Below are positions 10,088 through 62,443 of a stretch of 64,000 nt of DNA, piece by piece. The notes below the pieces were generated by a model. That model had not been told where the DNA came from, did not search any database, and saw only the letters and a list, made by a program, of their open reading frames with translations. Both the position numbers and the translations under genes were made by a program. Numbering within the stretch: the stretch's first letter is position 1; the number at the start of each line of letters is the position of its first letter. This DNA is from a virus (Duplodnaviria; Heunggongvirae; Uroviricota; Caudoviricetes), in IMG/VR virus record IMGVR_UViG_2698536476_000008; one strand, written 5' to 3'.

Positions 10088-10121
10088 TTAACCGATTCTA
10101 CGAGTAGTCATTTGTGACAGG

Positions 10122-10598
10122 TCATTTTGCGCGCTTCAGGCAGCCATCTTCAGGTGCCGCGTTGAAAAGCTCTGCGGCCTTACGTAGCGTAAATGTTGCG
10201 ATTTTTTTTCCGTCTACGTATGCATCGAATGTTTTAACTTCCATATCAGGGGTATCTGACCAAAAACCATACCAGTAACTATCACCCACAGAGGAACCGA
10301 TAGAACTGATAGGATATTCATCATCACCAACTTTCAGCGTTATTTGTTCTTTTTTAGCATCAAATGACTCACCGCCAGGTTCTGTTTTCATGAGAGTGAG
10401 TAGTCGTGTTCCTACTTGATTGGGATCCGTATTATTAAATCCAACATCGCACTCAAATGTAAGCGTATAATTATCTTTGCTGGAAACAGCATAAGAACGA
10501 ACACCATGAGTCTCGCCGGTTGACCATTTGCTTACATTTGCCATTGATGAAAATGGAGTAAGCAAAGCAAGAATTAGAAAAAATCGTTTGATGCGCAT
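10122..10598 (-). CDS. Secreted/periplasmic protein (158 aa)
   Basis: N-terminal signal peptide MRIKRFFLILALLTPFSSMA; AT-rich flanks. Confidence 0.55.
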   Translation of the reverse strand: MRIKRFFLILALLTPFSSMANVSKWSTGETHGVRSYAVSSKDNYTLTFECDVGFNNTDPNQVGTRLLTLMKTEPGGESFDAKKEQITLKVGDDEYPISSIGSSVGDSYWYGFWSDTPDMEVKTFDAYVDGKKIATFTLRKAAELFNAAPEDGCLKRAK

Positions 10599-10659
10599 TA
10601 ATTTATCTCCTTTGGATATTAACGATTATCAATATTTTAATTGGTTATCCATAATATAT

Positions 10660-11307
10660 TTACCATTCATAGGGTAAATTAAGCGCTTTTAAACCTTGCT
10701 GGAAGGTATTAAGTGAACCGTTCTTTTGTTGTTCCATTTGTTCGCGTGCCGCTTTCTCATACTGCTCCATCCGTTGGTTATACTCTTGCAATTCCTCTGG
10801 TGAGAGGTTTCCCATTGGGGAGTTTGTACCCGGCCCCCTGGCCCGCTCTTCAAGCGTACCCTGCACGTTTTGATGGCGCATTCCTGGGGCATTTCTGATT
10901 GAGTCAATGCCATTTCTTCCAACGTCTTCTTTATTAACGGCATTGCTCGCCACCAGCACACCCCAGCTAGGAATAGCAAAATCAGGAGCGGTTTCGCATG
11001 CCTTTACCATATAATCGAAAGAGCTTCGATTGATCTCGTTTGCGTCGGGATTTAACAGGCGAGAATATTGATATTTAGCATTTTCGTTGGTTGCGACTTT
11101 ATACAGTTCTTGCTGCACCATCGCTTCAGAAAGTTTAAGGCGTTTCATATCTGACAGTAACTTCTTGCGCATGGATTCGTCTTGACTGACAGCAAAGCCG
11201 TAAACGTGCCCAAGGTATTTCGTATAATCGGTACAAATCTCCTTTACGCTTGATGCTGCATTAACAGTCCCAGCCATAAATAATAACGGTAGTAATAGTT
11301 TTCTCAT
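10660..11307 (-). CDS. Secreted protein carrying a Sit-like motif
   Basis: Probable start at internal Met (MRKLLLPLLFMAGTVNA signal peptide) preceded by AGGTGAGG; C-terminal IRNAPGMRHQNVQGTLEERARGPGT resembles Sit NGRGMRREVVQGTLEERARGKGT. Confidence 0.55.
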   Translation of the reverse strand: MRKLLLPLLFMAGTVNAASSVKEICTDYTKYLGHVYGFAVSQDESMRKKLLSDMKRLKLSEAMVQQELYKVATNENAKYQYSRLLNPDANEINRSSFDYMVKACETAPDFAIPSWGVLVASNAVNKEDVGRNGIDSIRNAPGMRHQNVQGTLEERARGPGTNSPMGNLSPEELQEYNQRMEQYEKAAREQMEQQKNGSLNTFQQGLKALNLPYEW

Positions 11308-11420: not shown

Positions 11421-11589
11421 GTATTTTTAAGTCACGAATGCTATCTTTTCACATCATATTGACCTTTTAATCGTTCAGGCTTATAGTTCCGCCGTCGTAG
11501 CAAATTCTGCGACCGGGTTTAGCAGCCTGAATACTTACGCGGACAACCGCAGATTTCCGATATTGCGGTATTTTTGTGTCCGTAAACCA

Positions 11590-11670
11590 CGTTACGCCCG
11601 AATTATGGTGGGGCGTGATGGGGAGGCTTCGGCCTGCTGGTTTCGTAAGTGCCAGTCTGCTAACCCCGTC
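11590..11670 (+). ncRNA. Candidate c4-like immunity RNA (coordinates approximate)
   Basis: Block TATGGTGGGGCGTGATGGGGAGGCTTCGGCCTGCTGG conserved with 62083-62125, with compensatory changes around a TTCG-loop hairpin; sits between operator and icd as in P1 immI. Confidence 0.35.
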
Positions 11671-11732
11671 ACGTCCTGCCACCTGTTTAGCAGCGGGTCG
11701 CAGGTTGTTTATCAACTTACGAGGCCGTAACT

Positions 11733-13158: not shown

Positions 13159-13959
13159 ATGCAACAAACATTCAATGCGGATATGAATATATCAAACCTT
13201 CATCAAAATGTCGATCCTTCAACCACTCTGCCCGTTATTTGTGGTGTTGAAATTACGACCGACCGCGCTGGCCGTTACAACCTTAATGCTCTACACAGAG
13301 CGAGCGGACTCGGTGCCCATAAAGCGCCAGCTCAATGGCTAAGAACGCTGTCAGCCAAACAGCTCATCGAAGAGCTTGAAAAAGAAACTATGCAGAATTG
13401 CATAGTTTCGTTCGAAGGCCGTGGCGGCGGCACTTTTGCCCATGAATTGCTCGCAGTGGAGTACGCAGGCTGGATTTCTCCCGCGTTTCGGCTGAAGGTA
13501 AACCAGACATTTATCGACTATCGAGCCGGAAGATTACAACCTGCTATTCCGAAGAGCCTCCCAGAAGCTCTCCGTTTGGCTGCTGACCTGGCAGAGCAAA
13601 AGCAACGGCTGGAGCAAAAAATGCTGATGGATGCACCTAAAGTCGAATTCGCCGAACGCGTTGCTACCGCCAGCGGGGTTCTAATCGGCAACTATGCCAA
13701 AGTGCTCGGCCTGGGCCAAAACTATCTCTTCACCTGGTTGCGTGATAACGGAATTCTGATCGCAACCGGTGAACGCAGGAACGTCCCCAAACAAGAATAC
13801 ATATCCCGTGGGTATTTCACCCTTAAAGAAACCGTGATCGATACAAGCAATGGAAGCAGGATTTCTTTCACGACTCGTATAACCGGCAAAGGTCAGCAGT
13901 GGCTGATGAAGCGATTGCTTGATGCTGGTGTGCTGGTACCTGTCGCGGCAACGCGCTAA
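13159..13959 (+). CDS. kilA: KilA (266 aa): KilA-N domain plus KilAC antirepressor-type C-terminus
   Basis: N-terminal ...ITTDRAGRYNLNALHRASGLGAHKAPAQWL...; C-terminal domain shared with Ant; size as recalled for P1 KilA. Confidence 0.7.
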   Translation: MQQTFNADMNISNLHQNVDPSTTLPVICGVEITTDRAGRYNLNALHRASGLGAHKAPAQWLRTLSAKQLIEELEKETMQNCIVSFEGRGGGTFAHELLAVEYAGWISPAFRLKVNQTFIDYRAGRLQPAIPKSLPEALRLAADLAEQKQRLEQKMLMDAPKVEFAERVATASGVLIGNYAKVLGLGQNYLFTWLRDNGILIATGERRNVPKQEYISRGYFTLKETVIDTSNGSRISFTTRITGKGQQWLMKRLLDAGVLVPVAATR

Positions 13960-13988
13960 CAGACGTAGTAAGAACCACCAGCATTGTA

Positions 13989-14834
13989 ATGCTGGCTAAA
14001 GTCACTTTCCTGAGCTGTATAACGATGAGCGATTTTACTTTTTCTGGCTATGAATTGGCCTGCTTTGTAACACACTCCGGTCTATCCCGTAGCGCCGGGC
14101 ATATCCTGTCGCAATGTGCAAATCTAGCGGCAACAACCAGTGAATACTTCATTCACAAGCCTCACCGCCTGATCGCGGCAGAAACTGGTTATAGCCAATC
14201 AACCGTCGTTCGTGCATTCCGTGAAGCTGTAAACAAAGGAATTCTGTCTGTAGAGATTGTTATCGGCGATCACCGTGAACGTCGCGCTAACCTGTACCGG
14301 TTTACACCATCCTTTTTGGCCTTCGCACAACAAGCCAAAAATGCGCTGATTGAAAGCAAATTAAAGATCTCTTCAGCGGCAACCAAGGTTAAAGCTGTTC
14401 TCGCTAAGACATTGGCTTTATTTAATTTTTTATCCACACCCCCATGTCAAAATGATACCCCCTCCCCCTGTCAGGATGACGTGGCAATAAAGAATAAGAA
14501 GTCACAAGTTAAAAAAACAAAAAGATCAGTTTCCGGCGGTGCCGGAACGACCAGACTCAAAAAATTGACTTCATGGATCGCTGAGGCAAAAACAAAGGCT
14601 GACAATCTGCGGTTATCCAAAAAACGCGCTCAAAAACATGAGTTCAAGCAGAAAGTAGAGGCGGCAGCGCGGAAATATGCTTACCTGAAGAACAAGCGTT
14701 CTCCTGATATTGGCGGGGTATCAAACTTCGATAATCTGCCGCATTGCATGACGGTAAACGAAGCTCTTAATGCGGTTTTAGCCAAAAATAAAGATAACGA
14801 ACAATGGGGTATACCGGCAGGATTCAGAGGGTGA
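13989..14834 (+). CDS. repL: RepL lytic replication protein (281 aa)
   Basis: HTH ETGYSQSTVVRAFREAVNKGIL; size and position after kilA as in P1. Confidence 0.7.
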   Translation: MLAKVTFLSCITMSDFTFSGYELACFVTHSGLSRSAGHILSQCANLAATTSEYFIHKPHRLIAAETGYSQSTVVRAFREAVNKGILSVEIVIGDHRERRANLYRFTPSFLAFAQQAKNALIESKLKISSAATKVKAVLAKTLALFNFLSTPPCQNDTPSPCQDDVAIKNKKSQVKKTKRSVSGGAGTTRLKKLTSWIAEAKTKADNLRLSKKRAQKHEFKQKVEAAARKYAYLKNKRSPDIGGVSNFDNLPHCMTVNEALNAVLAKNKDNEQWGIPAGFRG

Positions 14835-15130
14835 TAGATTGCTCTAATCTGGAGTCACCTGGCGTTTTCAGTTTGAGGTCGGAGATGCAATCTGATTTTT
14901 TACAGTTAGCGATCGCTTTTGCAGGATATGTTTGTATTGGCTTCTGTGTATACATGATCAGCCGAAAAATGCTTGTCGATATCGACCGCAAAGAACAAGC
15001 AGAGGAGATCTTAGTATGGATTTTCTTTGGCGCGGTCTGGCCATTAGGGATCATGTTTGCTGCAACATTTCTTCTGATGTGGATATTCACCCTTCCTGGT
15101 GATTTCTATAGAAAAAAAGCCAGACATTGA
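14804..15130 (+). CDS. Small membrane protein (start likely at internal Met near 14885)
   Basis: Two hydrophobic segments in translation; overlaps repL end if started at 14804. Confidence 0.4.
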   Translation: MGYTGRIQRVIDCSNLESPGVFSLRSEMQSDFLQLAIAFAGYVCIGFCVYMISRKMLVDIDRKEQAEEILVWIFFGAVWPLGIMFAATFLLMWIFTLPGDFYRKKARH

Positions 15131-15253
15131 TACAATCGTTGCGGGTGCTTGAGGCTATCTGCTTCAGGCATTACCCGAAAAGCAGATAGAAGAAAGCCCC
15201 AGATAACATCACGCGTCCTGCAAGACGCTTAACATTAATCTGAGGCCATATCT

Positions 15254-15460
15254 ATGCTTAGCATACGTAGATTAGCCTCTTACCGACCAAAAGGTCAAGG
15301 AGAAGTAGGCTATGAAGCAGCAAAAAGCGATGTTAATCGCTCTGATCGTCATCTGTTTAACCGTCATTGTGACGGCACTGGTAACGAGGAAAGACCTCTG
15401 CGAGGTACGAATCCGAACCGGCCAGACGGAGGTCACTGTCTTCACAGCCTACGAATCTGA
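15254..15460 (+). CDS. mok-like overlapping reading frame upstream of and overlapping hok
   Basis: 68-aa ORF in a different frame overlapping the hok-like gene, as in hok/mok/sok loci. Confidence 0.35.
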   Translation: MLSIRRLASYRPKGQGEVGYEAAKSDVNRSDRHLFNRHCDGTGNEERPLRGTNPNRPDGGHCLHSLRI

Positions 15461-15467
15461 AAGGTAA
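15312..15467 (+). CDS. hok: Hok/Gef-family type I toxin (51 aa)
   Basis: Verified codon by codon: MKQQKAMLIALIVICLTVIVTALVTRKDLCEVRIRTGQTEVTVFTAYESER; AGGAG 7 nt upstream; Hok family signature TRK.LCE.R....EV..F.AYES. Confidence 0.85.
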   Translation: MKQQKAMLIALIVICLTVIVTALVTRKDLCEVRIRTGQTEVTVFTAYESER

Positions 15468-15540
15468 GAGACCTGGCGGGGAGAGATCTCCGCCACTCTT
15501 CGTGTGTCAGGTATCCTCAATGCACCCTTTCCTCTCCAAA

Positions 15541-15567
15541 TAAAAAAGCTCCCGAAGGAGCTTTAAA
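15541..15567. terminator. Bidirectional Rho-independent terminator
   Basis: AAAAAAGCTCC-CGAA-GGAGCTTTAAAA between convergent hok and the 169-aa gene. Confidence 0.6.
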
Positions 15568-15583
15568 ATACAAGGGATGACTC

Positions 15584-16093
15584 TTAATCCCACTCAATCC
15601 AGTTGTAGACGATACGAAGTGACGGGCGCACAGCGGCAGTCACATCTTCGGTACTAAAGTCGATTGCATCACTGTAGATTTTGCAGTCCAACATTTCAAT
15701 TGTTGTAGCAGCTTTTGTCACAGCGTTAACCCCGGAAGATTTGGATTCAGGGGTCGCAGCCATCGTGATATCAACATAGTCCTTCGCCGCAATGCGATCC
15801 TTGATGAACTGAAGAATATCGCCTTCGATAGTCTCCACGCACTGGACCTGGATTTCCCCAGAGTTTCGAATTGGTCCGTGCTGGTTGAACTTCACACCAT
15901 TCGGACCATAGTCCTCCACATCCTCGCGGGTCATTTCAGGAATTTGCGACGTGCGAACCAGTACGCTGATATCTTCATGGCCTGCAAAAGTGAGCTGGAA
16001 TTCAGAAGATACCAGTCGTTCGCCTTTGGCCGCGTTGGCAGTATAGCGGCCCTTAATAAATTTACGGTTTCCCTTAGTGTTATTGTGCCCCAT
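15584..16093 (-). CDS. Virion/baseplate-associated protein (169 aa)
   Basis: ORF track; late-operon position. Confidence 0.45.
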   Translation of the reverse strand: MGHNNTKGNRKFIKGRYTANAAKGERLVSSEFQLTFAGHEDISVLVRTSQIPEMTREDVEDYGPNGVKFNQHGPIRNSGEIQVQCVETIEGDILQFIKDRIAAKDYVDITMAATPESKSSGVNAVTKAATTIEMLDCKIYSDAIDFSTEDVTAAVRPSLRIVYNWIEWD

Positions 16094-16104
16094 ATAAAAT
16101 CCTT

Positions 16105-16686
16105 TTACTGGAACGCCCGAACAATATCGGAGCTGTTATATATCGAAGAACCGGTCAACTGGAGGTTGACGGTGTTTTTCAGGAAATGCCCATTGCTGTC
16201 CCTGGGCGCATCGAGATCGAAACTTATGTCCTGGATAGCGACATCAATGATGTTGATCCGGCGACCAATGTTTAGCGTCACACGCTCCGGGATTCGACCA
16301 CCAATACTGGCATCTTTAAGTTCCGGGCTAATCATCGCTGACAATGCGGCGATAGCTCCTGAAACCTCCGTGAATGGGTCAAACAAAGCGATGAAAGTTA
16401 CTGGCAGCGTGAAAGTCGGCGGTGTTCCCCCCTCCCAAACCATTAAGCTGTTCCAACGGGCCACCGACGTTGTTTCAGTACCAACCTGCGCAAAACCACT
16501 GAAAGCACCAGCAACAGATCCCATGGACATACCGGTAAACGGCGCTTCCCAATTCTGGGCCATGTTCATTGCCGCCCCCTGGCTGATATATCCGGTAACC
16601 TGGTACTGAGAGTTCGTTAAAGTAACTTTCAGAAATGGCGATACACCGTCAGCCTGGCTGTAAACCCCATAAGGTATAGGTGCCAT
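16105..16686 (-). CDS. Virion-associated protein (193 aa)
   Basis: ORF track. Confidence 0.45.
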   Translation of the reverse strand: MAPIPYGVYSQADGVSPFLKVTLTNSQYQVTGYISQGAAMNMAQNWEAPFTGMSMGSVAGAFSGFAQVGTETTSVARWNSLMVWEGGTPPTFTLPVTFIALFDPFTEVSGAIAALSAMISPELKDASIGGRIPERVTLNIGRRINIIDVAIQDISFDLDAPRDSNGHFLKNTVNLQLTGSSIYNSSDIVRAFQ

Positions 16687-16721
16687 TCAAGTTAAAGGCC
16701 GGAGTTCTCCGGCCTCCTCCT

Positions 16722-32923: not shown

Positions 32924-33070
32924 AATGCGGCTAAGCGCACGCGGGGAAATGGTTATATCAGTCCATTCATTTCTCCTTGTTTCCCCGTCCACGGTGGATA
33001 ACCAGCCAAAGGACACCGGGAGGCACCCGGCACCGCAGCTTTTTTATTCGTTAAATAATGGAGTGAGAGG

Positions 33071-33307
33071 ATGCAGAACAATTCGAACAAATGTCGAACG
33101 CTATGGGTGCGGTTATATATTTATGCCGTCCTCTGTTTGATTGTGTCACTGGTTCTGTATGTTTGGCTTTTGCCAAATATGATCTCATCTAACAGCACAA
33201 TACTTGTATTGTTGGGAGTCCTTCTCGCGCTCATTTACCCGGCTTTCGCAGTAGTCTTTTTTCGTGAAAAAACCAGGAAATTAATTAATGAAAAAAACGT
33301 TGATTAG
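33071..33307 (+). CDS. Small two-TM membrane protein (78 aa)
   Basis: Hydrophobic segments; overlaps start of SPFH gene. Confidence 0.5.
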   Translation: MQNNSNKCRTLWVRLYIYAVLCLIVSLVLYVWLLPNMISSNSTILVLLGVLLALIYPAFAVVFFREKTRKLINEKNVD

Positions 33308-34115
33308 TGCAGCGATTATTTTGGGTTCTTTATGTCTGACCGGATGCGATCGGGTAGAGCCAGGTAACGTAGGGATCAAAGTAAATAAGCTGGGGGATGA
33401 TAAAGGTATCGGTGAAGTAGTTGGCGTTGGTCGCTACTGGACAGGCTTGAATACTGAAGTTTATATCTTCCCGACCTTTAAGCAAATGAAGACATACGAT
33501 GAGCCGTTCAGCTTCCAGATGAGCGACGGAACAACCATTGGTTACCACATCGGCGTAGCCTACAAGGTTGATCCAGCAAAAGTCACAACGGTATTTCAGA
33601 CCTATCGCAAAGGTGTAGATGATATTACTGATACCGATCTACGCCAGAAGGTTGCAGATGCTCTGAACCGGTTAGCCAGCAAAATGACCACCGACAAATT
33701 TATCGACGGTGGCAAATCTGAATTGCTTGATGCAGCCCTTAAAGACATTCAGGAAGAAATGACGCCAATCGGCATTCAGGTGATGAGCCTCTCTTATGTA
33801 GGTAAGCCAGAATACCCGCCAACAGTTATTGACAGTATTAACGCCAAAGTCACGGCAAACCAAAAAACCCTGCAACGCGAGCAAGAGGTCAAACAACGTG
33901 AAGCAGAGGCCAACATGCTGCGCGCGGAAGCTGCCGGACAGGCTGATGCTATTCGCACAAAAGCCCAGGCCGAAGCTGATGCCATTCGTTTACGTGGTGA
34001 AGCTCTGCGCCAGAACCCCGGTGTTATGGAGTTGGAAGCGATCAACAAATGGAACGGTACATTACCGCAGTATATGACCAGTAATACCGCTGTTCCGTTT
34101 GTTCCGGTGAAATAA
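33288..34115 (+). CDS. SPFH/band-7-like lipoprotein (275 aa)
   Basis: Signal peptide with lipobox LTGC; C-terminal Ala/Glu/Arg/Gln-rich coiled coil; family assignment by pattern only. Confidence 0.55.
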   Translation: MKKTLISAAIILGSLCLTGCDRVEPGNVGIKVNKLGDDKGIGEVVGVGRYWTGLNTEVYIFPTFKQMKTYDEPFSFQMSDGTTIGYHIGVAYKVDPAKVTTVFQTYRKGVDDITDTDLRQKVADALNRLASKMTTDKFIDGGKSELLDAALKDIQEEMTPIGIQVMSLSYVGKPEYPPTVIDSINAKVTANQKTLQREQEVKQREAEANMLRAEAAGQADAIRTKAQAEADAIRLRGEALRQNPGVMELEAINKWNGTLPQYMTSNTAVPFVPVK

Positions 34116-34142
34116 AAGCGTAAGCAAAATTGGCAGTAATCC

Positions 34143-51383: not shown

Positions 51384-51899
51384 ATGGCGTTAACACACCG
51401 CGAACTCTGTCAAATTGCGTACAAGTTCCTTAAGCGCAACGGGTTCAAGGTTTGTTTTCATGACCGCTTTATAGCTGTAACCAGTACCGGAGAACAGCCA
51501 GATGCTATGGGGTTCAGAAATTCAGCATCATGCCTGATAGAGGCGAAGTGTTCTCGTGCTGACTTGTTGGCAGATAGAAAAAAGCGTTTCCGTAAAAATC
51601 CCTCACTTGGCATGGGCGACTGGCGATTCTTTATTAGTGAGCCGGGAATTATTTCAATTGAGGATTTACCACCTGGCTGGGGATTACTTCACGTTGTTAA
51701 CGGAAGAGTACGGAAAGTACATGGGTGGCCCAAGGGTAATTGCTGTTGGGGTAATCCTGACGATAAGCCATTTACTGGAAATAAGCAGGTTGAATGCGAT
51801 TACATGTTATCTGCATTAAGGCGCATGGAGTTGAGAGGGCACCTTAATGAAATATATGACGGTGTAATTGTTAATAAGAAAGAAGGAAACGCGGCATGA
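51384..51899 (+). CDS. PD-(D/E)xK-type nuclease-like protein (171 aa)
   Basis: ATG 51384 with AAAGGAGAG upstream; EQPD...IEAKCS motif. Confidence 0.45.
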   Translation: MALTHRELCQIAYKFLKRNGFKVCFHDRFIAVTSTGEQPDAMGFRNSASCLIEAKCSRADLLADRKKRFRKNPSLGMGDWRFFISEPGIISIEDLPPGWGLLHVVNGRVRKVHGWPKGNCCWGNPDDKPFTGNKQVECDYMLSALRRMELRGHLNEIYDGVIVNKKEGNAA

Positions 51900-53200
51900 T
51901 CACTATTACCAAAGAGCGACTGCTGACAATCAAGCAGTGGCGCGAAACATACGGACCTGGTAGCAACGTTGTACTGCCAGCAGAAGAAGCGGAAGAGCTG
52001 GCACGGATTGCTCTGGCATCGCTGGAAGCAGAACCGGTGGCATGGACTGATGAAGAGGAACTGCGCGATGTCAGGAAGTATGGTTTCGGTGAGATATTTC
52101 AGTGTCCGCCAGATAAATATGCGGACCCGCGTCGTGTAATCTCGCTGTATCGCGAGCTGCCAGCACCGGTAGTGCCAGATGATTGGCAACTCGTACCTAA
52201 GAAAATAACACTGGAAATGGAATGTGCTCTATCAAAAGCTGATAGCTATGAAATTGGTTGGCTATGGGCATTGGCAGCCGCACCTAAATACGAAGTACAG
52301 AACGCTAAACGCGTGCAAAACGCGCTTAACGCCTGCCGCGCCGCCATGCTTCAGTCCGGAAACTTTCGGGAAAACAAGAATTCGTCAACCAATAATTTTC
52401 GGGAAATCGCGGAAACGTCAACCAACTATCCGGCAATTCCTAGTGAGGTGTTGTCCGCAATCCTGAAGGTTGCCAGGATTCGTGCCGATTTCGATGATTT
52501 TGACGGTGACAGGCGAGGTATCGGTGATTGTCTGGATGAGGCTGAGCAAGAGCTTATCGTTACCATTAACAAATATGCCAGTCAGTTGGCAGCAGAACCG
52601 ATAGCGACTAATGACGTTCGAGAGCAGCAGACAGCCGTTCCGCCAGTTCCGGAAATACAGGATGATGTCGCGCAAGCAATTGAAAATCTCAAGCAGAAGT
52701 TAGTGGAATGCAATCGCTATAACTACTGCGCAGATGCAGTTAAAGGCGTAGAGGATGCCTGCCACGCTGCCATGCTTCAGGGTAGCCAACCTGTAAGCCA
52801 AACTTACAAGTTGCCAGTTAATACACCTTGCCAAGATGCGCCAGCCCATATCTGGCTGCAAACGGCTGGAGTATGGCCAGAAGATGGCGAGTTAAGCGAA
52901 TTAACGTGGTGCAGCCACAATCAGCACCATGATGACACGCTATATGTTCGAGCTGACCTTGTGAATGGCAACTATCCGGTAACTCCGGATAGTTGGATAA
53001 GCTGTAGTGAGCGAATGCCGGATACCAAAACAGCCGTTCTTGTTGCCGTGGAGTTTGACAGGAAAGGTGACTGGCGAATGAAATGGGCGACTTACATCCC
53101 GGGTCATCCTGACGCTAATGATGGGTGGATAATTCCTGGTGCGTCGTGGAAACCGTCACACTGGATGCCGCTACCAGAACCGCCGCAGGAGGCGAAATGA
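51896..53200 (+). CDS. Protein with DUF551-like C-terminus (434 aa)
   Basis: C-terminal ...DGWIIPGASWKPSHWMPLPEPP. Confidence 0.5.
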   Translation: MITITKERLLTIKQWRETYGPGSNVVLPAEEAEELARIALASLEAEPVAWTDEEELRDVRKYGFGEIFQCPPDKYADPRRVISLYRELPAPVVPDDWQLVPKKITLEMECALSKADSYEIGWLWALAAAPKYEVQNAKRVQNALNACRAAMLQSGNFRENKNSSTNNFREIAETSTNYPAIPSEVLSAILKVARIRADFDDFDGDRRGIGDCLDEAEQELIVTINKYASQLAAEPIATNDVREQQTAVPPVPEIQDDVAQAIENLKQKLVECNRYNYCADAVKGVEDACHAAMLQGSQPVSQTYKLPVNTPCQDAPAHIWLQTAGVWPEDGELSELTWCSHNQHHDDTLYVRADLVNGNYPVTPDSWISCSERMPDTKTAVLVAVEFDRKGDWRMKWATYIPGHPDANDGWIIPGASWKPSHWMPLPEPPQEAK

Positions 53201-53457
53201 TGGATGTAAAAGAGAAGGTTTTGCAGGTGATGCGTTCCCGGGCTGCCCTGCAAGATAAAGCTCTCGGCGGGGAATATCCATTCAGGATGGCAACCTGGAA
53301 TCTGCGGTTGGCAATGGAGAAGGAATTTCCTGATGAAGAATGGCGTTCGGCAGATTTGCGCAAAATTCTTATGGAGCTGGCTAAAGATGGAACAGTATCC
53401 AAAGATACCCATGCCAGCCGGATTGGTCAGGCGGTATGGAGACTGGAGGTGAGGTAA
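53197..53457 (+). CDS. Small hypothetical protein (start at internal Met)
   Basis: ATGA overlap with upstream stop. Confidence 0.4.
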   Translation: MMDVKEKVLQVMRSRAALQDKALGGEYPFRMATWNLRLAMEKEFPDEEWRSADLRKILMELAKDGTVSKDTHASRIGQAVWRLEVR

Positions 53458-53533
53458 TAAGCTGGCCTGAAGCATTTGCGATTGTAGGCGTAGCTATGGC
53501 GATTGCCGCTATTTTTATCTTCTGGGGGTAGCG

Positions 53534-53767
53534 ATGGGAAAATTAACTTTTGTAGTCGAATTTGAGGATGGCAAAGAGCCACCTGTTAGCGCCAATCTTG
53601 ATGTTGCTGGTGGCAGGCTGGTTTCGGTTCTATTTGGTGATTACCGCGACGACTTCTTTCAGCCTGAAGAAGTTGATGTAGTGCGAGAAGCATTAAACGA
53701 GCTAAGTGTTGATAACGATGATGCTCATGCGGAAATCATCAAAAAAATGGAACTGCTAACTCACTAA
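53534..53767 (+). CDS. Small acidic protein (77 aa)
   Basis: ORF track. Confidence 0.4.
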   Translation: MGKLTFVVEFEDGKEPPVSANLDVAGGRLVSVLFGDYRDDFFQPEEVDVVREALNELSVDNDDAHAEIIKKMELLTH

Positions 53768-53815
53768 ATTATCAATTATGGTGCTATCACCTACGACACC
53801 GAGAGAAAATTTATA

Positions 53816-53938
53816 ATGTCAAAAGTAAATGTTTTGATTTTTTCAGCAATTGTTGGCTTTGGTTTTACTGCCGGAGTGCAGATTTATATTACGTGGGAAA
53901 AAATCATCAACTACGCATGGAGTTGTTTTATTAAGTGA
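53816..53938 (+). CDS. Small hydrophobic peptide (40 aa)
   Basis: Verified translation MSKVNVLIFSAIVGFGFTAGVQIYITWEKIINYAWSCFIK. Confidence 0.3.
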   Translation: MSKVNVLIFSAIVGFGFTAGVQIYITWEKIINYAWSCFIK

Positions 53939-53945
53939 GGTAAGT

Positions 53946-54239
53946 ATGTGGAGAGGTAATAATCATGGCAAAAGCCAGATGATACTTACCGAATATAAGC
54001 TAGACCACAAAACCAATAAATCACGCTCAGTATATTTGCTCCGGCACAATAGCCGCGTAAGAAATACCGTGCTGGAACAAAATCTGACAGTTGAAATGGA
54101 TAATTGCGGGGGATTCAAGCCAACAATTTCGCTTGATGATTTTCCTCGTGGTTTAAGCGAAAGAGAAGCAATGCTGAAATTAGCAGAATGGCTACAAAGA
54201 TTAAGCATTGCTATTGAAGATAACTGGTCTGAACCTTAA
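53946..54239 (+). CDS. Hypothetical protein (97 aa from internal Met)
   Basis: ORF track frame; TGAGGT before ATG. Confidence 0.4.
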   Translation: MWRGNNHGKSQMILTEYKLDHKTNKSRSVYLLRHNSRVRNTVLEQNLTVEMDNCGGFKPTISLDDFPRGLSEREAMLKLAEWLQRLSIAIEDNWSEP

Positions 54240-54245
54240 ATTTAT

Positions 54246-54620
54246 ATGATGACACTAAAACATTTTCTTGACCGCCCATTATGGGCGGCAGCCGCAGGCT
54301 ATGACTTTAATTATATGGATTGCATGTCTTATACTGCCAATGCATACGACCATTCGTTCATCCTGCTGTTTAATTCTTTAAGAATATTGCCGGAAACAGA
54401 AGTTGGAGAGCTTCATTTATGGCTATTGGGCTTTATCGCGGCTGTCGTTGGTATTGCTGTATGGCCTTTTATTTTCTGGCTGGTGGCTGTTGTAGTGTGG
54501 TTTAAGTGCAAGACATACCGGAAAAAGTATTTCTTAGGTGATGGAATGACTGATATTGCCAAAATGAACATTGAAGAATGGACTAAGGAATGTGAAAAGA
54601 AATGGCGCAAAAAGAAATGA
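54246..54620 (+). CDS. Membrane protein (124 aa)
   Basis: Hydrophobic segment LWLLGFIAAVVGIAVWPFIFWLVAVVVWF. Confidence 0.45.
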   Translation: MMTLKHFLDRPLWAAAAGYDFNYMDCMSYTANAYDHSFILLFNSLRILPETEVGELHLWLLGFIAAVVGIAVWPFIFWLVAVVVWFKCKTYRKKYFLGDGMTDIAKMNIEEWTKECEKKWRKKK

Positions 54621-55252
54621 CCAGAATCACTGAAGAGCGCATATCAGAGATTATTTCCCGTATCGAAATGTATGGTCACGGTGCTGGATATACGGCAGAT
54701 GAAGTATTGGAAATAGCCCAGCAGATGCTGGCCTTGAGACAAAAAGAGCAACATGAAAGTAATACGTGTAGATTGAATTTTGAGCATTGGCTGGAACAGC
54801 AACGCGGAAAAATCGATGTGGACTGTGGTTGTGTGTCCACTGAAACATTCATGCACTGGCTGCGGGTAGCTTACGAGGCTGGCAACTATCCGGATATTCC
54901 GGATAGTTCGGTGCCAGCGCCAGGAAAGGGCGTCACCGGTGAACGTATCCGCATTAAGCCGCATGTTTATCGCGAACTGGTTAACCGTCTCCACGATACA
55001 GCGATCAAGTGTGCTGGCACCCAGCAATTACGAGAAAGAATTAGCCGTGTTTTGGGCGACGTTATTACACCAGATCATCATAAACAAGCCGAGAAAAGTG
55101 ACCTGGAAAGGTGTCACCTTGAGGCGGCATTAAACATTAAGCCGGGGCATACGCTTGGCATTATTGATGCACTATTGGTTCATAAGATGGCCAGGGCTTT
55201 ATTGCCGCTGGTGGCTGAAAAGCATGAGGTGGACCATGCCAACGAAAGCTGA
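54602..55252 (+). CDS. Hypothetical protein (216 aa)
   Basis: ORF track. Confidence 0.45.
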   Translation: MAQKEMTRITEERISEIISRIEMYGHGAGYTADEVLEIAQQMLALRQKEQHESNTCRLNFEHWLEQQRGKIDVDCGCVSTETFMHWLRVAYEAGNYPDIPDSSVPAPGKGVTGERIRIKPHVYRELVNRLHDTAIKCAGTQQLRERISRVLGDVITPDHHKQAEKSDLERCHLEAALNIKPGHTLGIIDALLVHKMARALLPLVAEKHEVDHANES

Positions 55253-55525
55253 ATTACAGGTGCGCGTAGATGAGCTGAAAAAGAGAACGCGAGCCTCAAA
55301 AAAATGCTGTCGCGGGCGGAAAGGGAATTATCAGGCAAATTATTGCCAGAAGAACTGCCACCAGCAGATATACTAGATCGAGTGTCCCAGTGGATGAAGT
55401 CTTTTGGTTTACCGTGGGAGGCTTTTGGTGCTACGACCATCGCAGATGGTGTGATGAACTTGATAGCAATTTTCCCTACTTTGCGGAAGGGAACACCTGC
55501 CCTCAATGCAGGGGATAGCATTTGA
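55236..55525 (+). pseudogene. Small coiled-coil gene interrupted by a frameshift at an A7 tract
   Basis: ATG 55236 (GAGGTGG upstream) reads MPTKAELQVRVDELKKRTRASKK then A7 at 55298-55304; the +1 frame continues MLSRAERELSGKLLPEEL... to 55525. Confidence 0.35.
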
Positions 55526-55853
55526 CGAAATCGATCACCCTATCCTGAACTTCAGAAAGAAGGTCTTTTTCACGCGCCAGGACGTCAGGATATTGACGTT
55601 CTGGCCTTACCAGATGCCGGAACTTCCCATTAAGCAGAATGGCCTCAGAAAACACTTTTACGCTGTGCTTTATCCCCTCTGTTTCACTTTTCAGCGTCAA
55701 AATAAAGCGCAATTGCTTATTAGCCTGATTCGGATTCAATACACGAATTTGCAGTTCGTCTATGCTGTTTCGCAATGGGATTGATGCCACCACACTGGTG
55801 CAGTCTCTGATTGTCTGAATTGAACGGCTAACATTGAGAACGTTATTGTGCAT
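55503..55853 (-). CDS. Hypothetical protein (116 aa), lone minus-strand gene
   Basis: ORF track. Confidence 0.4.
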   Translation of the reverse strand: MHNNVLNVSRSIQTIRDCTSVVASIPLRNSIDELQIRVLNPNQANKQLRFILTLKSETEGIKHSVKVFSEAILLNGKFRHLVRPERQYPDVLAREKDLLSEVQDRVIDFVKCYPLH

Positions 55854-55885
55854 GTGCCTGATCCACTAACTCCTGGAGGTTTCTT

Positions 55886-56137
55886 GTGTCAGATCGAAAT
55901 ATAGCAGCTAAAAGCCAGGAAGAGCGAGACAAGGTGAACGTAGACCTTGCCGCCAGCGGCGTTGCTTACAAAGAACGGCTGAATATACCTGTGATTGCAG
56001 AGCAGGTGGCCCGTGAGCAACCGGAAAACCTGCGCGCCTATTTCATGGAACGGCTACGGCACTACCGGCAGTTAAGCCTCCAGTTGCCAAAAGGGAGCGA
56101 TCCGGTGTATCAGAACGAGGATGCACCAAAAAAATAA
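55886..56137 (+). CDS. hot: DNA polymerase III theta-subunit homolog
   Basis: [46 protein letters not shown] resembles E. coli HolE as recalled. Confidence 0.7.
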
Positions 56138-56224
56138 CGGCAAGATGGGGGAGAAATGTGATTAGCCCCCAGCGTGGCGCGCCTACAAACCCCGCTTTCA
56201 CAAACTATGCCTTTTCAATGTATA

Positions 56225-56240
56225 CTGTATGAATAAACAG
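56225..56240 (+). promoter_or_regulatory. LexA box upstream of humD
   Basis: CTGTATGAATAAACAG matches CTGT-N8-ACAG. Confidence 0.7.
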
Positions 56241-56260
56241 TATCATTGAGGTAAAACGCT

Positions 56261-56650
56261 ATGGGCTTCCCTTCTCCTGCGGCGGATTATGTTGAAAGCC
56301 GAATTTCTCTTGATCAGCAGATAATTAGACATCCATCAGCAACCTACTTCATGCGGGCAGCTGATAGCCATCACCGTGAGGGAATATTGCAGGGTGCTTT
56401 GCTGGTGGTTGATTCTTCGCTTACTCCAGTTGATGGTTCGCTGCTTGTGTGCGCTATGGAGGGTGAATATCGCATAAAGAGATACAGGAAGTATCCGCGC
56501 CAGCACCTGGAGGATTTAAGCACCGGGAAGAAAGAGGCGTTACCAGTAGATGACGATGGATGCACGGGCAGTAATGCTGTTTTTGGTGTGATCACTCATG
56601 TCATCAATGATGCCCGAAGTGGGGAGTTTGATGATTGTCCGGTTATTTAA
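56261..56650 (+). CDS. humD: UmuD'-like S24 peptidase-fold protein
   Basis: UmuD-like pattern; LexA box upstream; position before phd-doc. Confidence 0.7.
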   Translation: MGFPSPAADYVESRISLDQQIIRHPSATYFMRAADSHHREGILQGALLVVDSSLTPVDGSLLVCAMEGEYRIKRYRKYPRQHLEDLSTGKKEALPVDDDGCTGSNAVFGVITHVINDARSGEFDDCPVI

Positions 56651-56713: not shown

Positions 56714-56722
56714 GAGGTGTTT

Positions 56723-56944
56723 ATGCAATCCATTAACTTCCGTACCGCGCGCGGCAACCTTTCTGAAGTGCTCAACAATGTTGAAGCCGGGGAAGAGGTT
56801 GAAATCACCCGCAGAGGCCGTGAGCCAGCAGTAATTGTCAGCAAGGCTACTTTCGAAGCCTACAAAAAAGCGGCGCTGGATGCTGAATTTGCATCCCTGT
56901 TTGACACCCTGGACTCCACCAACAAGGAACTGGTTAACCGATAA
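56723..56944 (+). CDS. phd: Phd antitoxin (73 aa)
   Basis: [73 protein letters not shown]; matches P1 Phd as recalled. Confidence 0.9.
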
Positions 56945-57324
56945 TGAGGCATATATCACCGGAAGAACTTATTGCGCTTCATGATGCGAATATAAGCCGC
57001 TACGGCGGCCTGCCGGGAATGTCTGATCCGGGTAGGGCAGAGGCCATTATCGGGAGAGTTCAGGCCAGAGTTGCCTACGAAGAGATCACCGACCTTTTCG
57101 AAGTCTCCGCCACCTACCTGGTGGCTACAGCGAGAGGGCATATATTCAATGATGCCAATAAGCGTACCGCGCTAAACAGTGCGCTGCTATTTCTACGCCG
57201 TAACGGGGTGCAGGTATTTGATTCACCTGAACTGGCAGACCTTACTGTAGGCGCTGCGACTGGCGAGATATCTGTATCTTCTGTCGCCGACACGTTACGT
57301 AGATTGTATGGTTCTGCGGAGTAG
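56944..57324 (+). CDS. doc: Doc toxin, Fic-fold (126 aa)
   Basis: [11 protein letters not shown] motif; 1-nt overlap with phd stop. Confidence 0.9.
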
Positions 57325-60399: not shown

Positions 60400-61883
60400 T
60401 GGCCAGAAGTTGCGTAACGGATCCTCGTTGGCGCGAGCTGGTGGCGCTATATCGTTATGACTGGATTGCTGCCGCTGATGTTTTGTTCGGCAAAACACCT
60501 ACCTGGCAGCAGGATCTGATTATTGAGTCTGTGCAGGAACAGGGTAGCAAGACATCTGTTTCGTCTGGTCACGGTACCGGGAAATCAGACATGACTTCTA
60601 TCATGATCATGTTGTTCATAATCATGTATCCCGGTGCCCGCGCCATTATCGTTGCGAACAAAATTCAGCAGGTAATGACCGGTATATTCAAGTACATCAA
60701 GATAAACTGGGCTACTGCCACCAGCCGTTTTCCATGGCTTGCTGATTATTTTGTTCTGACAGAAACCGCTTTCTATGAGGTTACTGGTAAAGGTGTATGG
60801 ACTGTAGTACCGAAGGGCTTTCGTCTGGGAAGTGAAGAAGCTCTCGCCGGTGAACACGCAGATCATCTTCTGTATATTATCGATGAAGCCTCCGGTGTCA
60901 GTGATAGAGCTTTCGGTATCATCACCGGTGCTCTTACCGGACAGGATAACCGCATCTTATTACTGTCACAGCCTACACGCCCAAGCGGCTATTTCTACGA
61001 TACTCACCATAAACTGGCCAAGCGTCCTGGTAACCCAGATGGCGTTTATACGGCGATCACGCTTAACAGTGAGGAATCACCGCTGGTAACGCCAGAATTT
61101 ATCAAAATGAAGCTGGCGGAGTACGGCGGGCGTGATAACCCTATGTACATGATTAAGGTGCGCGGCCTATTCCCTAAATCACAGGACGGCTTCCTTCTTG
61201 GACGTGATGAGGTTGAACGTGCAACGCGGCGGAAAGTTAAGATTGCCAAAGGATGGGGCTGGCTTGCATGTGTGGACGTTGCTGGTGGTACGGGACGGGA
61301 TAAGTCAGTTATCAATATCATGATGGTGTCCGGCCAGCGAAATAAACGCCGTGTAATCAACTATCGAATGCTGGAATACACAGACGTTACAGAAACGCAG
61401 CTTGCCGCCAAAATTTTCGCAGAATGTAATCCTGAGCGATTCCCCAATATCACCATAGCGATAGATGGCGATGGCCTGGGTAAAGCAACAGCGGATCTGA
61501 TGTACGAGTATTATGGTATTACCGTACAGCGTATACGCTGGGGTAAAAAGATGCATAGCCGTGAAGATAAGAGCCTGTACTTTGATAAACGTGCTTATGC
61601 CAACGTTCAAGCCGCAGAGGCCGTAAAATCTGGTCGTATGAGACTGGATAAGGGTAATGAAACTATTGAGGAAGCGTCGAAAATCCCTGTAGGGATTAAC
61701 TCCGCAGGTCAATGGAAGGTGATGAGTAAGGAGGATATGAAGAAAAAACTCAACCTGCACTCACCAGACCATTGGGATACATATTGTTTCGCTATGCTGG
61801 CGGATTATGTTCCCCAGGATGAAGTGCTTAGCGTCGAAGACGAAGCGCAGGTTGATGAAGCTCTGGCATGGCTTAATGAATGA
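60399..61883 (+). CDS. pacB: Terminase large subunit PacB (494 aa)
   Basis: Walker [10 protein letters not shown]; size as recalled for P1 PacB. Confidence 0.85.
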
Positions 61884-61886
61884 ATA

Positions 61887-61903
61887 TTTGCTCTAATAAA
61901 TTG
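61887..61903 (+). promoter_or_regulatory. C1-operator-like site upstream of second icd-ant locus
   Basis: TTTGCTCTAATAAATTG. Confidence 0.6.
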
Positions 61904-62069
61904 TGTTTTTTAGCTACCGATGTTACATTGAACCTGACCTCTTGCGCCTTGAGGCATTTTCGGTTTATGCTTATCAGGCACCTCATTAAAACGGGTGCCG
62001 GGATTGGCCTCCCGCTTAAGTCTAAGGCGATACAGACGCCGCTCGCGTCTTTTTTTGTATCGGCGTACA

Positions 62070-62150
62070 CGCACACCTCTACAATGGTGGGCTGTATGGG
62101 GCTACCTTCGGGTAGGCTGGTTACCTTGGACGCCAGTAAGGCCAACTCCG
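62070..62150 (+). ncRNA. Candidate c4-like immunity RNA, second copy (coordinates approximate)
   Basis: AATGGTGGGCTGTATGGGGCTACCTTCGGGTAGGCTGG conserved with 11604-11645. Confidence 0.35.
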
Positions 62151-62221
62151 TACAGTCCACCGCCAGCAAGATTGGTCTCTTCTGCGGTGGTTACATACCA
62201 ACGTCTAAGGAGGCTGCCAAT

Positions 62222-62443
62222 ATGGCTACTATCCCTACCCCAACTCATCCTGAATTTATCTGGCGCTTTTACTCCTGCCAAAAACGTCACTATCACTTCG
62301 TTATTGCACCAACAGAAGATGAGGCCCGCTCTCAGCTGCCTGACGCCCCATGTATTTTCTCTGCCCGTTTTTCCACTGATTCACGCAATTCTCTCAGTTA
62401 CTGGTACCTCCCTGTTAACGCTTCTGTTCAGGAGGGGCTATGA
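62222..62443 (+). CDS. icd: Icd-like small protein (73 aa), second copy
   Basis: AAGGAGG before ATG 62222; MATIPTPTHPEFIWRFYSCQKRHYHFVIAPTEDEARSQLPD... Confidence 0.55.
   Translation: MATIPTPTHPEFIWRFYSCQKRHYHFVIAPTEDEARSQLPDAPCIFSARFSTDSRNSLSYWYLPVNASVQEGL

Follow-up and report, generated by a model that had tools for sequence, protein, structure and literature searches.

The stretch of DNA that we analysed, hereafter called the window, comprises 64,000 nucleotides of a viral genome (IMG/VR record IMGVR_UViG_2698536476_000008), and the locus discussed here is hosted by a P1-like plasmid of low copy number that also carries phd-doc. Between its genes repL and bplB stands a short reading frame that looks like a Hok/Gef toxin. 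The question that it raises is whether it belongs to a complete type I module, how such a module came to occupy a place where reference P1 carries other genes, and what it may do for the element. Our analysis identifies it as an ordinary and complete hok/mok/sok cassette in a known variable slot, which is already known and not unusual.

Composition and limits of the hok/mok/sok locus

The features of the locus and its surroundings are listed below by window coordinates and strand, with the basis of each assignment in brackets.

14838-14848, plus strand: ATTGCTCTAAT, the conserved core of operator Orlf/Op55 for C1, just downstream of repL (P1 annotation, sequence comparison)
14849-15541: segment substituted relative to P1, 693 bp (blastn against NC_005856)
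14885-15130, plus strand: small membrane protein with two helices, phrog_3772, 81 aa from its likely start
15109-15136, plus strand: hok/mok promoter, -35 TAGAAA, 16-nt spacer, TG-extended -10 TACAAT (promoter scan)
15143-15527, plus strand: hok/mok mRNA core from tac through fbi, 385 nt (RF01794 match, fold, conservation)
15143-15154, plus strand: tac element GGGTGCTTGAGG, 5' end of the mRNA (identical in all 65 relatives)
15192-15262, minus strand: Sok RNA, with single-stranded 5' tail, long hairpin and U-rich 3' tail (exact map onto 933W sokW)
15242-15245, plus strand: mok Shine-Dalgarno GAGG, 5' of the mok frame
15254-15460, plus strand: mok frame, 68 codons, overlapping hok (aligns with annotated Rac mok and 933W mokW)
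15269-15298, minus strand: Sok promoter, -35 TTGACC (15298-15293), 18-nt spacer, -10 TAATCT (15274-15269) (motif search)
15297-15302, plus strand: hok Shine-Dalgarno AAGGAG, 9 nt 5' of the ATG
15312-15467, plus strand: hok toxin gene of HokD type, 51 aa (Pfam, phrog_251, K-12 HokD identity)
15449-15455, plus strand: CUACGAA at the Tyr47 codon, TAC 15450-15452 (motif position; invariant in relatives)
15474-15495, plus strand: GC-rich 3' stem-loop of 9 pairs, uninterrupted in the window copy (fold)
15515-15527, plus strand: fbi element CCTCAATGCACCC, which pairs with tac (homology common to all other hok loci stops here)
15545-15564, minus strand: P1-backbone hairpin, intrinsic terminator after bplB (terminator scan, minus strand only)

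The 51-aa product matches Pfam HOK_GEF (PF01848; E=2.4e-22, 78.7 bits against a cut-off of 22) and phrog_251 (E=4.9e-32), and it shares 94% of its residues (48/51) with E. coli K-12 HokD, which has been reported to be toxic when expressed (bioRxiv 10.1101/2025.08.07.668861). Since NCBIfam Hok models match the product below their curated cut-offs (49.5 vs 73), the family assignment of the toxin was based on the Pfam and PHROGs matches and on its direct identity with HokD. Among 65 distinct relatives, the 51-codon hok is uninterrupted in every one and the mok frame (68 or 70 codons) in 64. The Hok/Gef frame with its ribosome-binding site, the overlapping mok-like frame and the 3' hairpin had all been claimed in a preliminary description of this DNA, and all are present. 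The TACG motif is the site of Tyr to Cys editing by TadA in K-12 hokC, hokD and hokE (PMC5630033), and we infer from its presence that the Tyr47 codon of the window hok would be edited as well.

The RNA architecture of the locus is complete and conserved. Rfam model RF01794, which represents the hok mRNA in sense orientation up to the hok ATG, matches 15143-15317 over its full length (1-157) with 112.3 bits (gathering score 59; E=5.5e-26). The minimum-energy fold of the 385-nt transcript has a z-score of -8.98 against shuffled sequences and brings the 5' and 3' ends together, with tac and fbi forming a 12-bp helix (15143-15154 with 15515-15527). The hok ORF, the leader match and the fold are all far beyond chance. 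In the 65 relatives, all 12 pairs of the tac-fbi helix are retained in every sequence, GC to GU being the sole change, and the bulged base varies freely. Overall 92.2% of cells are paired, vs 37-42% in slid controls, and nine pairs of the fold show compensatory changes; the 3' stem-loop (helix 17) is 92% paired, with compensatory GC/AU changes. The hok gene is much better conserved than its flanks, and the stretch targeted by Sok is the most variable part. The intact hok and mok frames, the invariant tac, the restriction of fbi changes to GC to GU and the compensatory changes in the helices indicate that the toxin and the RNA switch are both under purifying selection. When fbi is removed, the predicted 5' fold shifts to a local tac hairpin, which resembles the metastable form and not the tac-ucb pairing of R1; the mok Shine-Dalgarno is paired with GCCCC at about 15195-15199 in both predicted folds, full-length and fbi-less.

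A sok gene with a predicted promoter was found opposite the mok start, in the region where the preliminary description had proposed to look for one. The Sok RNA is predicted to fold at -33 kcal/mol (z=-4.4). Its putative promoter, whose -35 box overlaps the hok Shine-Dalgarno on the opposite strand, was placed by motif search and homology to the annotated sokW, and implies a start at 15262, which fits the position of sokW. It did not come up in the scan for consensus promoters, because its -10 box matches the consensus at 3 of 6 positions only. The stretch comprising the Sok 5' tail and the mok start falls into 19 target types among the 65 sequences, and some relatives are only 0-2 bases away from the window in the 5'-tail target.

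The limits of the module differ from those first proposed (15200-15570). The module starts about 70-90 nt further upstream, with its promoter at 15109-15136 and the 5' end of the mRNA at 15143, and it ends with fbi at 15527. Homology with other hok loci begins at the -10 box at 15131 (the starts range over 15131-15141). A hairpin does exist at the place claimed for the hok terminator, but it belongs to the P1 backbone, is oriented for the opposite strand and lies outside the cassette. P1 homology resumes already at 15542, reference P1 has this hairpin between bplB and pmgF, and the T-run belongs to the minus strand, which rules it out as a hok terminator in its own right. In the fold it forms a structure separate from the hok mRNA. 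On the hok strand, a GC hairpin with a T-run is absent just past fbi, where 14 nt lead directly to the backbone hairpin. As the cassette has no counterpart of the terminator found past fbi in the hok copies of Rac and Qin (CCCGCTTCGGCGGGTTTTT), the 3' end of the hok transcript is uncertain. The backbone hairpin, being the first on the plus strand past fbi, may end hok transcripts, though only UUUAAAAU follows it.

The slot between repL and bplB in P1-like elements

Comparison of the window (13900-16700) with reference P1 (NC_005856) by blastn aligned only 13900-14848 and 15542-16700, with flanks that are 95.6-98.4% identical. The 693 bp in between stand for 1,826 bp of P1 carrying rlfA, rlfB and pmgF, and the left breakpoint lies inside the 17-bp C1 operator (P1 coordinates 51575-51591). 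The gene order of P1 and P7 (repL-rlfA-rlfB-pmgF-bplB) is not found here, and 14849-15541 is devoid of P1 homology. Conversely, reference P1 has rlfA-rlfB-pmgF in the slot and no hok module, in agreement with the absence from P1 that the preliminary description had supposed. The location between the lytic replicon and the virion genes was also correctly described, with repL on one side and bplB and pmgG on the other.

The substituted segment also carries the phrog_3772 ORF, which is part of that segment and not of the hok unit. In its longest form this ORF starts at 14804 (108 aa), but the family profile covers residues 28-108, and its start is therefore likely 14885. No Pfam, NCBIfam or PADLOC match was obtained for the 108-aa ORF. 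Its homologues occur only in P1-like phages and elements, and some plasmids with hok have lost part of it. Import of this ORF and hok as a single unit can be rejected, because the ORF is confined to P1-like elements whereas hok homology elsewhere starts at 15131-15141, and because either can occur alone: one element (L005) has lost the ORF, and another (673R5) is without the hok ORF. A weak terminator-like hairpin at 15087-15102 is the only one between repL and hok.

The cargo of this slot differs among P1-like elements. The P1 occupants match the PADLOC candidate defence system PDC-M04 (RlfA with PDC-M04A, E=1e-95; RlfB with PDC-M04B, E=1.3e-51). PADLOC-DB 2.0 gave no match for Hok or the 108-aa ORF, and neither Pfam nor PADLOC matched the long PmgF homologues of 673R5, SJ46 and RCS47 or a 356-aa ORF downstream of hok in another element (L014). 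In P1-like plasmids phd and doc count as extremely conserved genes, and the hok slot as one of the variable regions (PMC9603915).

The cassette is widespread. In PLSDB, which has roughly 680 P1-like plasmids, about 454 plasmids have the hok cassette vs 99 with the reference P1 arrangement, and in 227 plasmids the hok 3' region (15410-15570) is unbroken and joined to the P1 backbone as in the window. At least 80% of the repL-bplB stretch (14780-15620) is carried by 235 of 5,426 complete E. coli genomes, and a related hok match is present in 4,747 of them. The diverged relatives SJ46, RCS47 and 673R5 retain leader remnants of hok alone, an allele that goes with a long pmgF. As the commonest allele, and one that has left remnants in diverged relatives, hok has been resident in the slot for long and is no recent one-off gain. 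The earlier suggestion that the module was acquired as cargo overstates how unusual it is, since no other allele is as common in this region, which is known to vary among P1-like plasmids. Public records already label the locus hokD (PGAP) or MokW, and it is already in print that rlfA-rlfB-pmgF give way to "two orfs including an antibacterial toxin" (Venturini et al. 2019; PMC6906374). Apart from that remark, we found no dedicated description of hok/sok in P1-like plasmids in the literature.

About half of the hok copies in P1-like plasmids are split by IS186/IS421 in the 3' stem-loop, with a 10-bp target duplication within 15479-15489, while the window copy is uninterrupted. The split detaches the 3' stem-loop and fbi. 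Insertions were found in both orientations, which rules out a single ancestral event and implies at least two independent ones. The frequency of split copies suggests that the module is dispensable and perhaps costly.

Proposed function and competing readings

We consider it probable that this intact hokD-type locus (15109-15527) acts by canonical, Sok-controlled post-segregational killing, as a second stabiliser of the element beside phd-doc. We infer the expression, mRNA processing, toxicity and plasmid-stabilising effect of the locus from the R1 paradigm (PMC9841398), which finds support here at the level of sequence and structure. In this mechanism, a weak promoter would yield a stable mok-hok mRNA, in which pairing of the 5' tac with the 3' fbi would keep the message untranslatable and closed to Sok. 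Slow 3' trimming to the GC-rich stem-loop would strip fbi, upon which the 5' region would refold and make the ribosome-binding site of mok and the target of Sok accessible. As long as the cell retains the plasmid, Sok, a short-lived RNA transcribed from the other strand, would pair with the exposed region and the duplex would be destroyed. Once the plasmid is lost or transcription is halted, Sok would decay first, mok would be translated and hok with it by coupling, and the 51-aa Hok peptide would damage the inner membrane. The circuit would also kill, as a side effect, when an infecting phage shuts off transcription. As most E. coli have hok relatives and some Sok targets are nearly identical to that of the window, a host-encoded Sok could blunt the killing. 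Also weighing against this reading are the affiliation of the locus with the chromosomal and prophage hokD clade, the split copies, the variable slot as opposed to the highly conserved phd and doc, the missing terminator past fbi, the weak -10 box of the Sok promoter and the local 5' hairpin predicted in place of tac-ucb.

Killing upon a phage-induced shut-off could instead be the main role. The repL-bplB slot would then be an exchangeable hotspot for defence or competition, with hok/sok, RlfAB and other cassettes as its alleles, and intact hok/sok would be kept mainly as an abortive-infection device triggered by shut-off, or as a device in competition between plasmids and other elements. An infecting phage would stop host transcription, Sok would decay, and Hok would kill the cell before the phage cycle is completed. 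The match of the reference occupants rlfA-rlfB to PDC-M04 and the varied cargo of the slot across P1-like elements both point this way, but PDC-M04 is a candidate system and neither Hok nor the neighbouring small membrane protein has a PADLOC match. Prophages are enriched in hok, and hok/sok has given protection against T4, but the latter was reported from a high-copy plasmid only, and the same survey saw no enrichment of hok near defence systems (bioRxiv 10.1101/2025.08.07.668861). The universally conserved phd-doc (PMC9603915), which already supplies addiction, speaks for such a role, while frequent IS disruption argues against strong selection of any kind. On balance we hold this reading to be unlikely. 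If it were true, the cost of hok would explain the recurrent IS186 inactivation at the 3' stem-loop, and the natural alleles (intact, IS-split in either orientation, leader remnant and rlfAB) would be a ready-made test of the role of prophage hok.

The IS insertions bear also on the view that hok is a selfish or neutral passenger, intact here but silent or neutralised in most hosts, decaying as it has in relatives and of no benefit to the phage-plasmid. Splitting of about half of the copies, with the IS in both orientations, an insertion at the same site in K-12 hokC and the reduction of the locus to leader remnants in 673R5, SJ46 and RCS47 support this view. Moreover, the chromosomal hok loci that were tested gave no post-segregational killing (bioRxiv 10.1101/2025.08.07.668861), and most E. 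coli hosts have related hok loci. Against this stand the purifying selection described above, with hok intact in 65/65 relatives, mok in 64/65, tac invariant and fbi changed by GC to GU only, and the maintenance of the helices by compensatory changes. We regard a mere passenger as rather improbable. That Hok assists the P1 lytic cycle, with induction of the C1-controlled kilA-repL operon leading to read-through into hok and so helping to depolarise or lyse the host, would suit its position directly 3' of repL in the same orientation, behind one weak terminator-like hairpin (15087-15102) and with the C1 operator core kept at the left junction, but it is most implausible, since reference P1, P7 and many relatives are lytic without the module, a 5'-extended transcript retains tac and fbi and should stay closed, and P1 has dedicated lysis genes (lydA, lydB and lyz).

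As a discovery the locus matters little, since it is a textbook system already annotated in hundreds of records of P1-like plasmids. Its wider meaning is that laboratory P1 is unrepresentative at this slot: most natural P1-like plasmids have the hok cassette, and the reference occupant RlfAB matches a candidate defence system. With the allelic series one could ask whether a locus of the hokD type carried by a prophage stabilises its element or excludes other phages, a question that the recent Hok survey poses as well.

Comparison with known systems

The phd-doc module of P1, which lies at 56717-57324 in the window as the preliminary description had stated, is a classical addiction module of type II, based on protein-protein interaction, whereas hok/sok is of type I. 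The hok/sok (parB) of R1, flm and srnB of F and pnd of R483 are systems of the same kind with the same proposed mechanism, and the window leader fits RF01794. A blastn search ("distant") of the hok unit against plasmids gave no R1-type match and reached only hokD-type copies or fragments, the sequences being too diverged for blastn, and R1 was therefore compared by way of the Rfam model and published work. Post-segregational killing has been demonstrated for R1, whereas for the hokD-type locus it is the predicted role. The window locus falls in the chromosomal and prophage hokD clade.

Its nearest counterparts are hokW/mokW/sokW of the Stx phage 933W and the Rac-type hok/mok, which are 87-90% identical in nucleotide sequence over exactly 15131-15527 and have the same order of elements. 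These copies reside in integrated lambdoid prophages, whereas the window locus lies in a plasmid prophage. Their mok has 70 codons vs 68 in the window, and they differ from it in the sequence past fbi and in the stretch of the Sok 5' tail and mok start.

With hokD (relF) of the cryptic Qin prophage of K-12, DNA homology spans the hok Shine-Dalgarno, the ORF, the 3' stem-loop and fbi, and both share the TACG Tyr codon, which is edited by TadA in K-12 (PMC5630033). Qin hokD is without promoter, tac, mok start and sok, its upstream part being replaced by the relBE operon; the window locus is the complete form. Qin hokD keeps its own terminator past fbi, unlike the window copy. K-12 hokC (gef) is chromosomal and belongs to another Hok subgroup, but its IS186A sits at the homologous 3' stem-loop, with a 10-bp duplication of GGAGTGATCC vs GGAGAGATCC in the plasmids. 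The hokC insertion is believed to interfere with fbi and with processing of the mRNA (PMC3562002), and the window copy is the uninterrupted allele.

The hok, mok and sok genes and their transcript

A 51-codon ORF, encoding MKQQKAMLIALIVICLTVIVTALVTRKDLCEVRIRTGQTEVTVFTAYESER, is flanked by repL (13989-14834, +) on one side and by the late genes bplB (15584-16093, -) and pmgG (16105-16686, -) on the other. It gives a full-model match to Pfam HOK_GEF (E=2.4e-22, 78.7 bits, cut-off 22), its product matches PHROG 251 'MokW-like host killing' (E=4.9e-32), and 48 of the 51 residues are identical to those of HokD (RelF) of E. coli K-12. Its ATG is preceded by AAGGAG, 9 nt upstream, and a 68-codon frame overlaps it as mok overlaps hok in known systems. 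Additionally, the whole length of the Rfam model RF01794 aligns to 15143-15317 with 112.3 bits (gathering score 59); the model is named 'sok', yet it represents the hok leader on the sense strand and stops at the hok ATG. The toxin ORF with its ribosome binding site and mok-like frame, as proposed in the preliminary description, is thus real and not a chance ORF. The parts of the locus were placed by motif positions and by aligning it with hokW/mokW/sokW as annotated in phage 933W and with a Rac-type hok/mok, both 87-90% identical to it.

Parts of the hok locus (placed by alignment and motifs)
15109-15136, +, hok promoter (TAGAAA, 16 nt, TG-extended TACAAT)
15143-15154, +, mRNA start and tac, the 5' end element (GGGTGCTTGAGG)
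15262 to 15192, -, Sok RNA, the antisense antitoxin
15298-15269, -, Sok promoter (TTGACC, 18 nt, TAATCT)
15254-15460, +, mok, 68-codon frame with its own GAGG
15312-15467, +, hok, 51-codon ORF
15474-15495, +, GC-rich 3' stem-loop
15515-15527, +, fbi, the 3' element pairing with tac (CCTCAATGCACCC)

A sok-like antisense promoter, which had been suggested as a check, is among the parts placed, and the 3' hairpin noted earlier corresponds to the GC-rich stem-loop. The promoter (15109) and mRNA start (15143) place the beginning of the module about 70-90 nt upstream of the coordinate given earlier. For the predicted 385-nt transcript the fold has an energy of -156.7 kcal/mol (z=-9.0), and the first 12 nt of the transcript pair with fbi; once the last 29 nt are removed, the 5' end is predicted to fold differently. 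In the predicted Sok RNA, a long hairpin is flanked by a free 5' tail and a U-rich tail (z=-4.4). The Tyr47 codon of Hok lies within CUACGAA (15449-15455), which contains the TACG motif. TadA recodes Tyr to Cys at this motif in K-12 hokC, hokD and hokE (PMC5630033), and such recoding of the window codon may add one further layer.

The hairpin at 15545-15564, earlier described as the terminator of the module, belongs instead to the P1 backbone. Within 13900-16700 of the window, alignment with reference P1 (NC_005856) is restricted to 13900-14848 and 15542-16700, the hairpin falls within the second block, and it is also found in P1 between bplB and pmgF. The T-run of the hairpin lies on the minus strand, for which alone the scan calls a terminator; together with the P1 homology this rules the hairpin out as part of the hok module. 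In the predicted fold it forms apart from the hok mRNA and leaves the tac-fbi pairing undisturbed. The Rac and K-12 Qin copies of hok have their own terminator directly after fbi, whereas the window copy has none.

The repL-bplB slot in P1-like elements

As the preliminary description supposed, hok/sok is absent from this position in reference P1, where the slot holds, in order, the C1 operator Orlf, rlfA and rlfB, and pmgF. In the window the slot is 693 bp long (14849-15541) and contains the hok unit together with a gene for a small membrane protein. On the left, the breakpoint lies within the C1 operator Orlf/Op55 (14838-14854), which retains its core ATTGCTCTAAT and differs from P1 in the last 6 bases; on the right, it immediately precedes the bplB terminator. 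The phd-doc module reported earlier is also present.

Further genes of the window
14804-15130, small membrane-protein gene (phrog_3772), likely start 14885, two predicted membrane helices, no assigned function
56717-56944, phd (PF02604)
56944-57324, doc (Fic/DOC)

The longest ORF of the phrog_3772 gene overlaps the repL stop, and a search for a separate promoter of this gene detected none. The gene is restricted to P1-like elements and is partly deleted in some hok-bearing plasmids; it and the neighbouring hok are independent of each other.

Phages 673R5, RCS47 and SJ46 retain the small membrane-protein gene and the hok promoter and leader, including the Sok gene, to 15274-15277 (aligned 15013-15277), this leader stretch being only 80% identical to the window in SJ46. 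All sequence from the Sok -10 box onward is lost, and in place of hok the minus strand encodes a long homologue of PmgF (phrog_7522, 171-210 aa). These leader remnants show hok/sok to be a long-standing occupant of the slot, which has been overwritten in part in some lineages, rather than a single recent acquisition. The 98-aa PmgF of P1 matches the N-terminal part of the phrog_7522 family. Another slot variant is seen in two P1-like IMG/VR contigs (L014:2011-3081 and L015), whose homology to the window stops at 15539; in both, hok is followed not by bplB but by a minus-strand ORF of 356 aa, for which Pfam and PADLOC gave no match.

In PLSDB, the hok 3' region runs into the P1 backbone without a break, like that of the window, in 227 plasmids and is split in a further ~227, while the reference rlfA-rlfB-pmgF arrangement is found in only 99 of ~680 P1-like records. 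At least 80% of the sequence from repL to bplB (14780-15620) is carried by 235 of 5,426 complete E. coli genomes. NZ_CP035313.1 shows 100% identity across the 841-nt query.

Elsewhere in the window, a second immI-like module is located between pacB and c1 (61880-63558), with an isrK RNA (61978-62055), a second C4 antisense RNA (62080-62167), an Ash-family protein and an ORF6N/KilAC antirepressor; the regular c4 region is separate, at 11481-11686. The 8.1 kb between pmgT and humD/phd (48346-56499), encoding two Ead/Ea22-like proteins, a DUF551 protein and several ORFs without a Pfam match, had no megablast match to the P1 isolate compared. The same was true of 1-669, 10116-11167, 21074-25781 and 33038-34133, which lie in the tail-fibre end, sim, par/rep and tciABC regions and match variable regions previously listed for P1-like plasmids.

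Conservation and interruption of the predicted RNA switch

A scan of IMG/VR with the protein seed returned 80 loci. In the ~60 that are not P1-like, homology to the window begins at 15131-15141 and ends at 15527; judged by homology, the conserved hok unit is exactly '-10 box to fbi'. When 65 distinct sequences were aligned and pairs counted on the window's own minimum-energy structure, 92.2% of cells were paired versus 37-42% with partners slid. Taking the structure from one of the aligned sequences biases this count in its favour, yet the P1-type group makes up only 11 of the 65. Changes on both sides occurred at nine pairs (86 cells versus 2-14 in slid controls). The tac-fbi helix is paired in all 65 sequences and changes only from GC to GU, apart from a bulged base that varies. 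The 51-codon hok is likewise kept in 65/65 and mok in 64/65. Variability is lowest in tac (0 bits), the stretch from the hok SD to the ATG (0.025) and hok (0.06), and highest in the stretch pairing with the Sok 5' tail (15240-15262, mok SD and start region; 0.59 bits, 19 variants among the 65), a pattern that suggests diversification of Sok specificity.

The split copies are broken at 15479-15489, inside the 3' stem-loop, with a 10-bp duplication; the window copy is an allele without interruption. IS186/IS421 interrupts the hok stem-loop in about half of the 454 PLSDB plasmids with the hok cassette (e.g., locus L005:1850-3198), and the insert in NZ_CP081721.1 is a 1.35-kb element of this family. 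Three IMG/VR loci (L018, L021 and L027) have the same element at the same site in opposite orientation, and thus at least two independent insertions took place. In the K-12 hokC locus, IS186A occupies the homologous position of that gene's own stem-loop, where the insertion is presumed to disrupt fbi and the usual processing of the mRNA (PMC3562002).

Possible role and relation to known systems

The window almost certainly contains an intact hok/mok/sok locus, with the sequence and structure elements described above present and conserved. Under the R1 paradigm, as summarised in PMC9841398, a stable hok mRNA would be kept closed by tac-fbi pairing until slow 3' trimming to the stem-loop opens it, whereupon the unstable Sok RNA would pair with it and the duplex be degraded. 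Upon plasmid loss or transcription arrest Sok would disappear first, so that mok would be translated, and hok by coupling, leading to cell death. By analogy, we infer hok expression, processing, toxicity and any stabilising effect for the window locus.

The simplest reading that includes a role is that the locus gives the low-copy plasmid prophage a second addiction module, and we favour it with moderate confidence. Against it, the chromosomal hok loci that have been tested did not cause post-segregational killing (bioRxiv 10.1101/2025.08.07.668861), an IS disrupts half of the hok copies, 4,747 of 5,426 E. coli genomes have related hok loci, and the Sok targets are near-identical in some relatives. 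The main alternative is that hok/sok serves as an abortive-infection or competition device. P1 RlfA (DUF3800) and RlfB (L001:1604-2772, in reference P1) match components A (E=1e-95) and B (E=1.3e-51) of the PADLOC candidate system PDC-M04, which makes the slot a possible defence hotspot; but protection against T4 by hok/sok was reported from a high-copy plasmid only, and hok is not enriched near defence systems. Apart from the role of hok, the 'replication-linked' rlfA/rlfB of laboratory P1 may form a cassette for defence, and the repL-bplB slot may be a hotspot of defence or accessory genes.

Our literature search found no paper analysing this P1-like hok/sok locus as such. The substitution of rlfA-rlfB-pmgF was already noted by Venturini et al. 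2019 (PMC6906374), and Zhang et al. 2022 listed rlfA-rlfB-pmgF among eight variable regions and phd and doc among extremely conserved genes (PMC9603915). The gene is hokD in RefSeq and MokW in some phage records. What is added here is incremental: where exactly the cassette begins and ends, that the terminator derives from the backbone, that other lineages keep remnants of the leader, that IS186 has targeted the site recurrently and that RlfAB matches a candidate defence system. Overall, the finding is correct in substance and ordinary, being a known system in a known variable region and already annotated.
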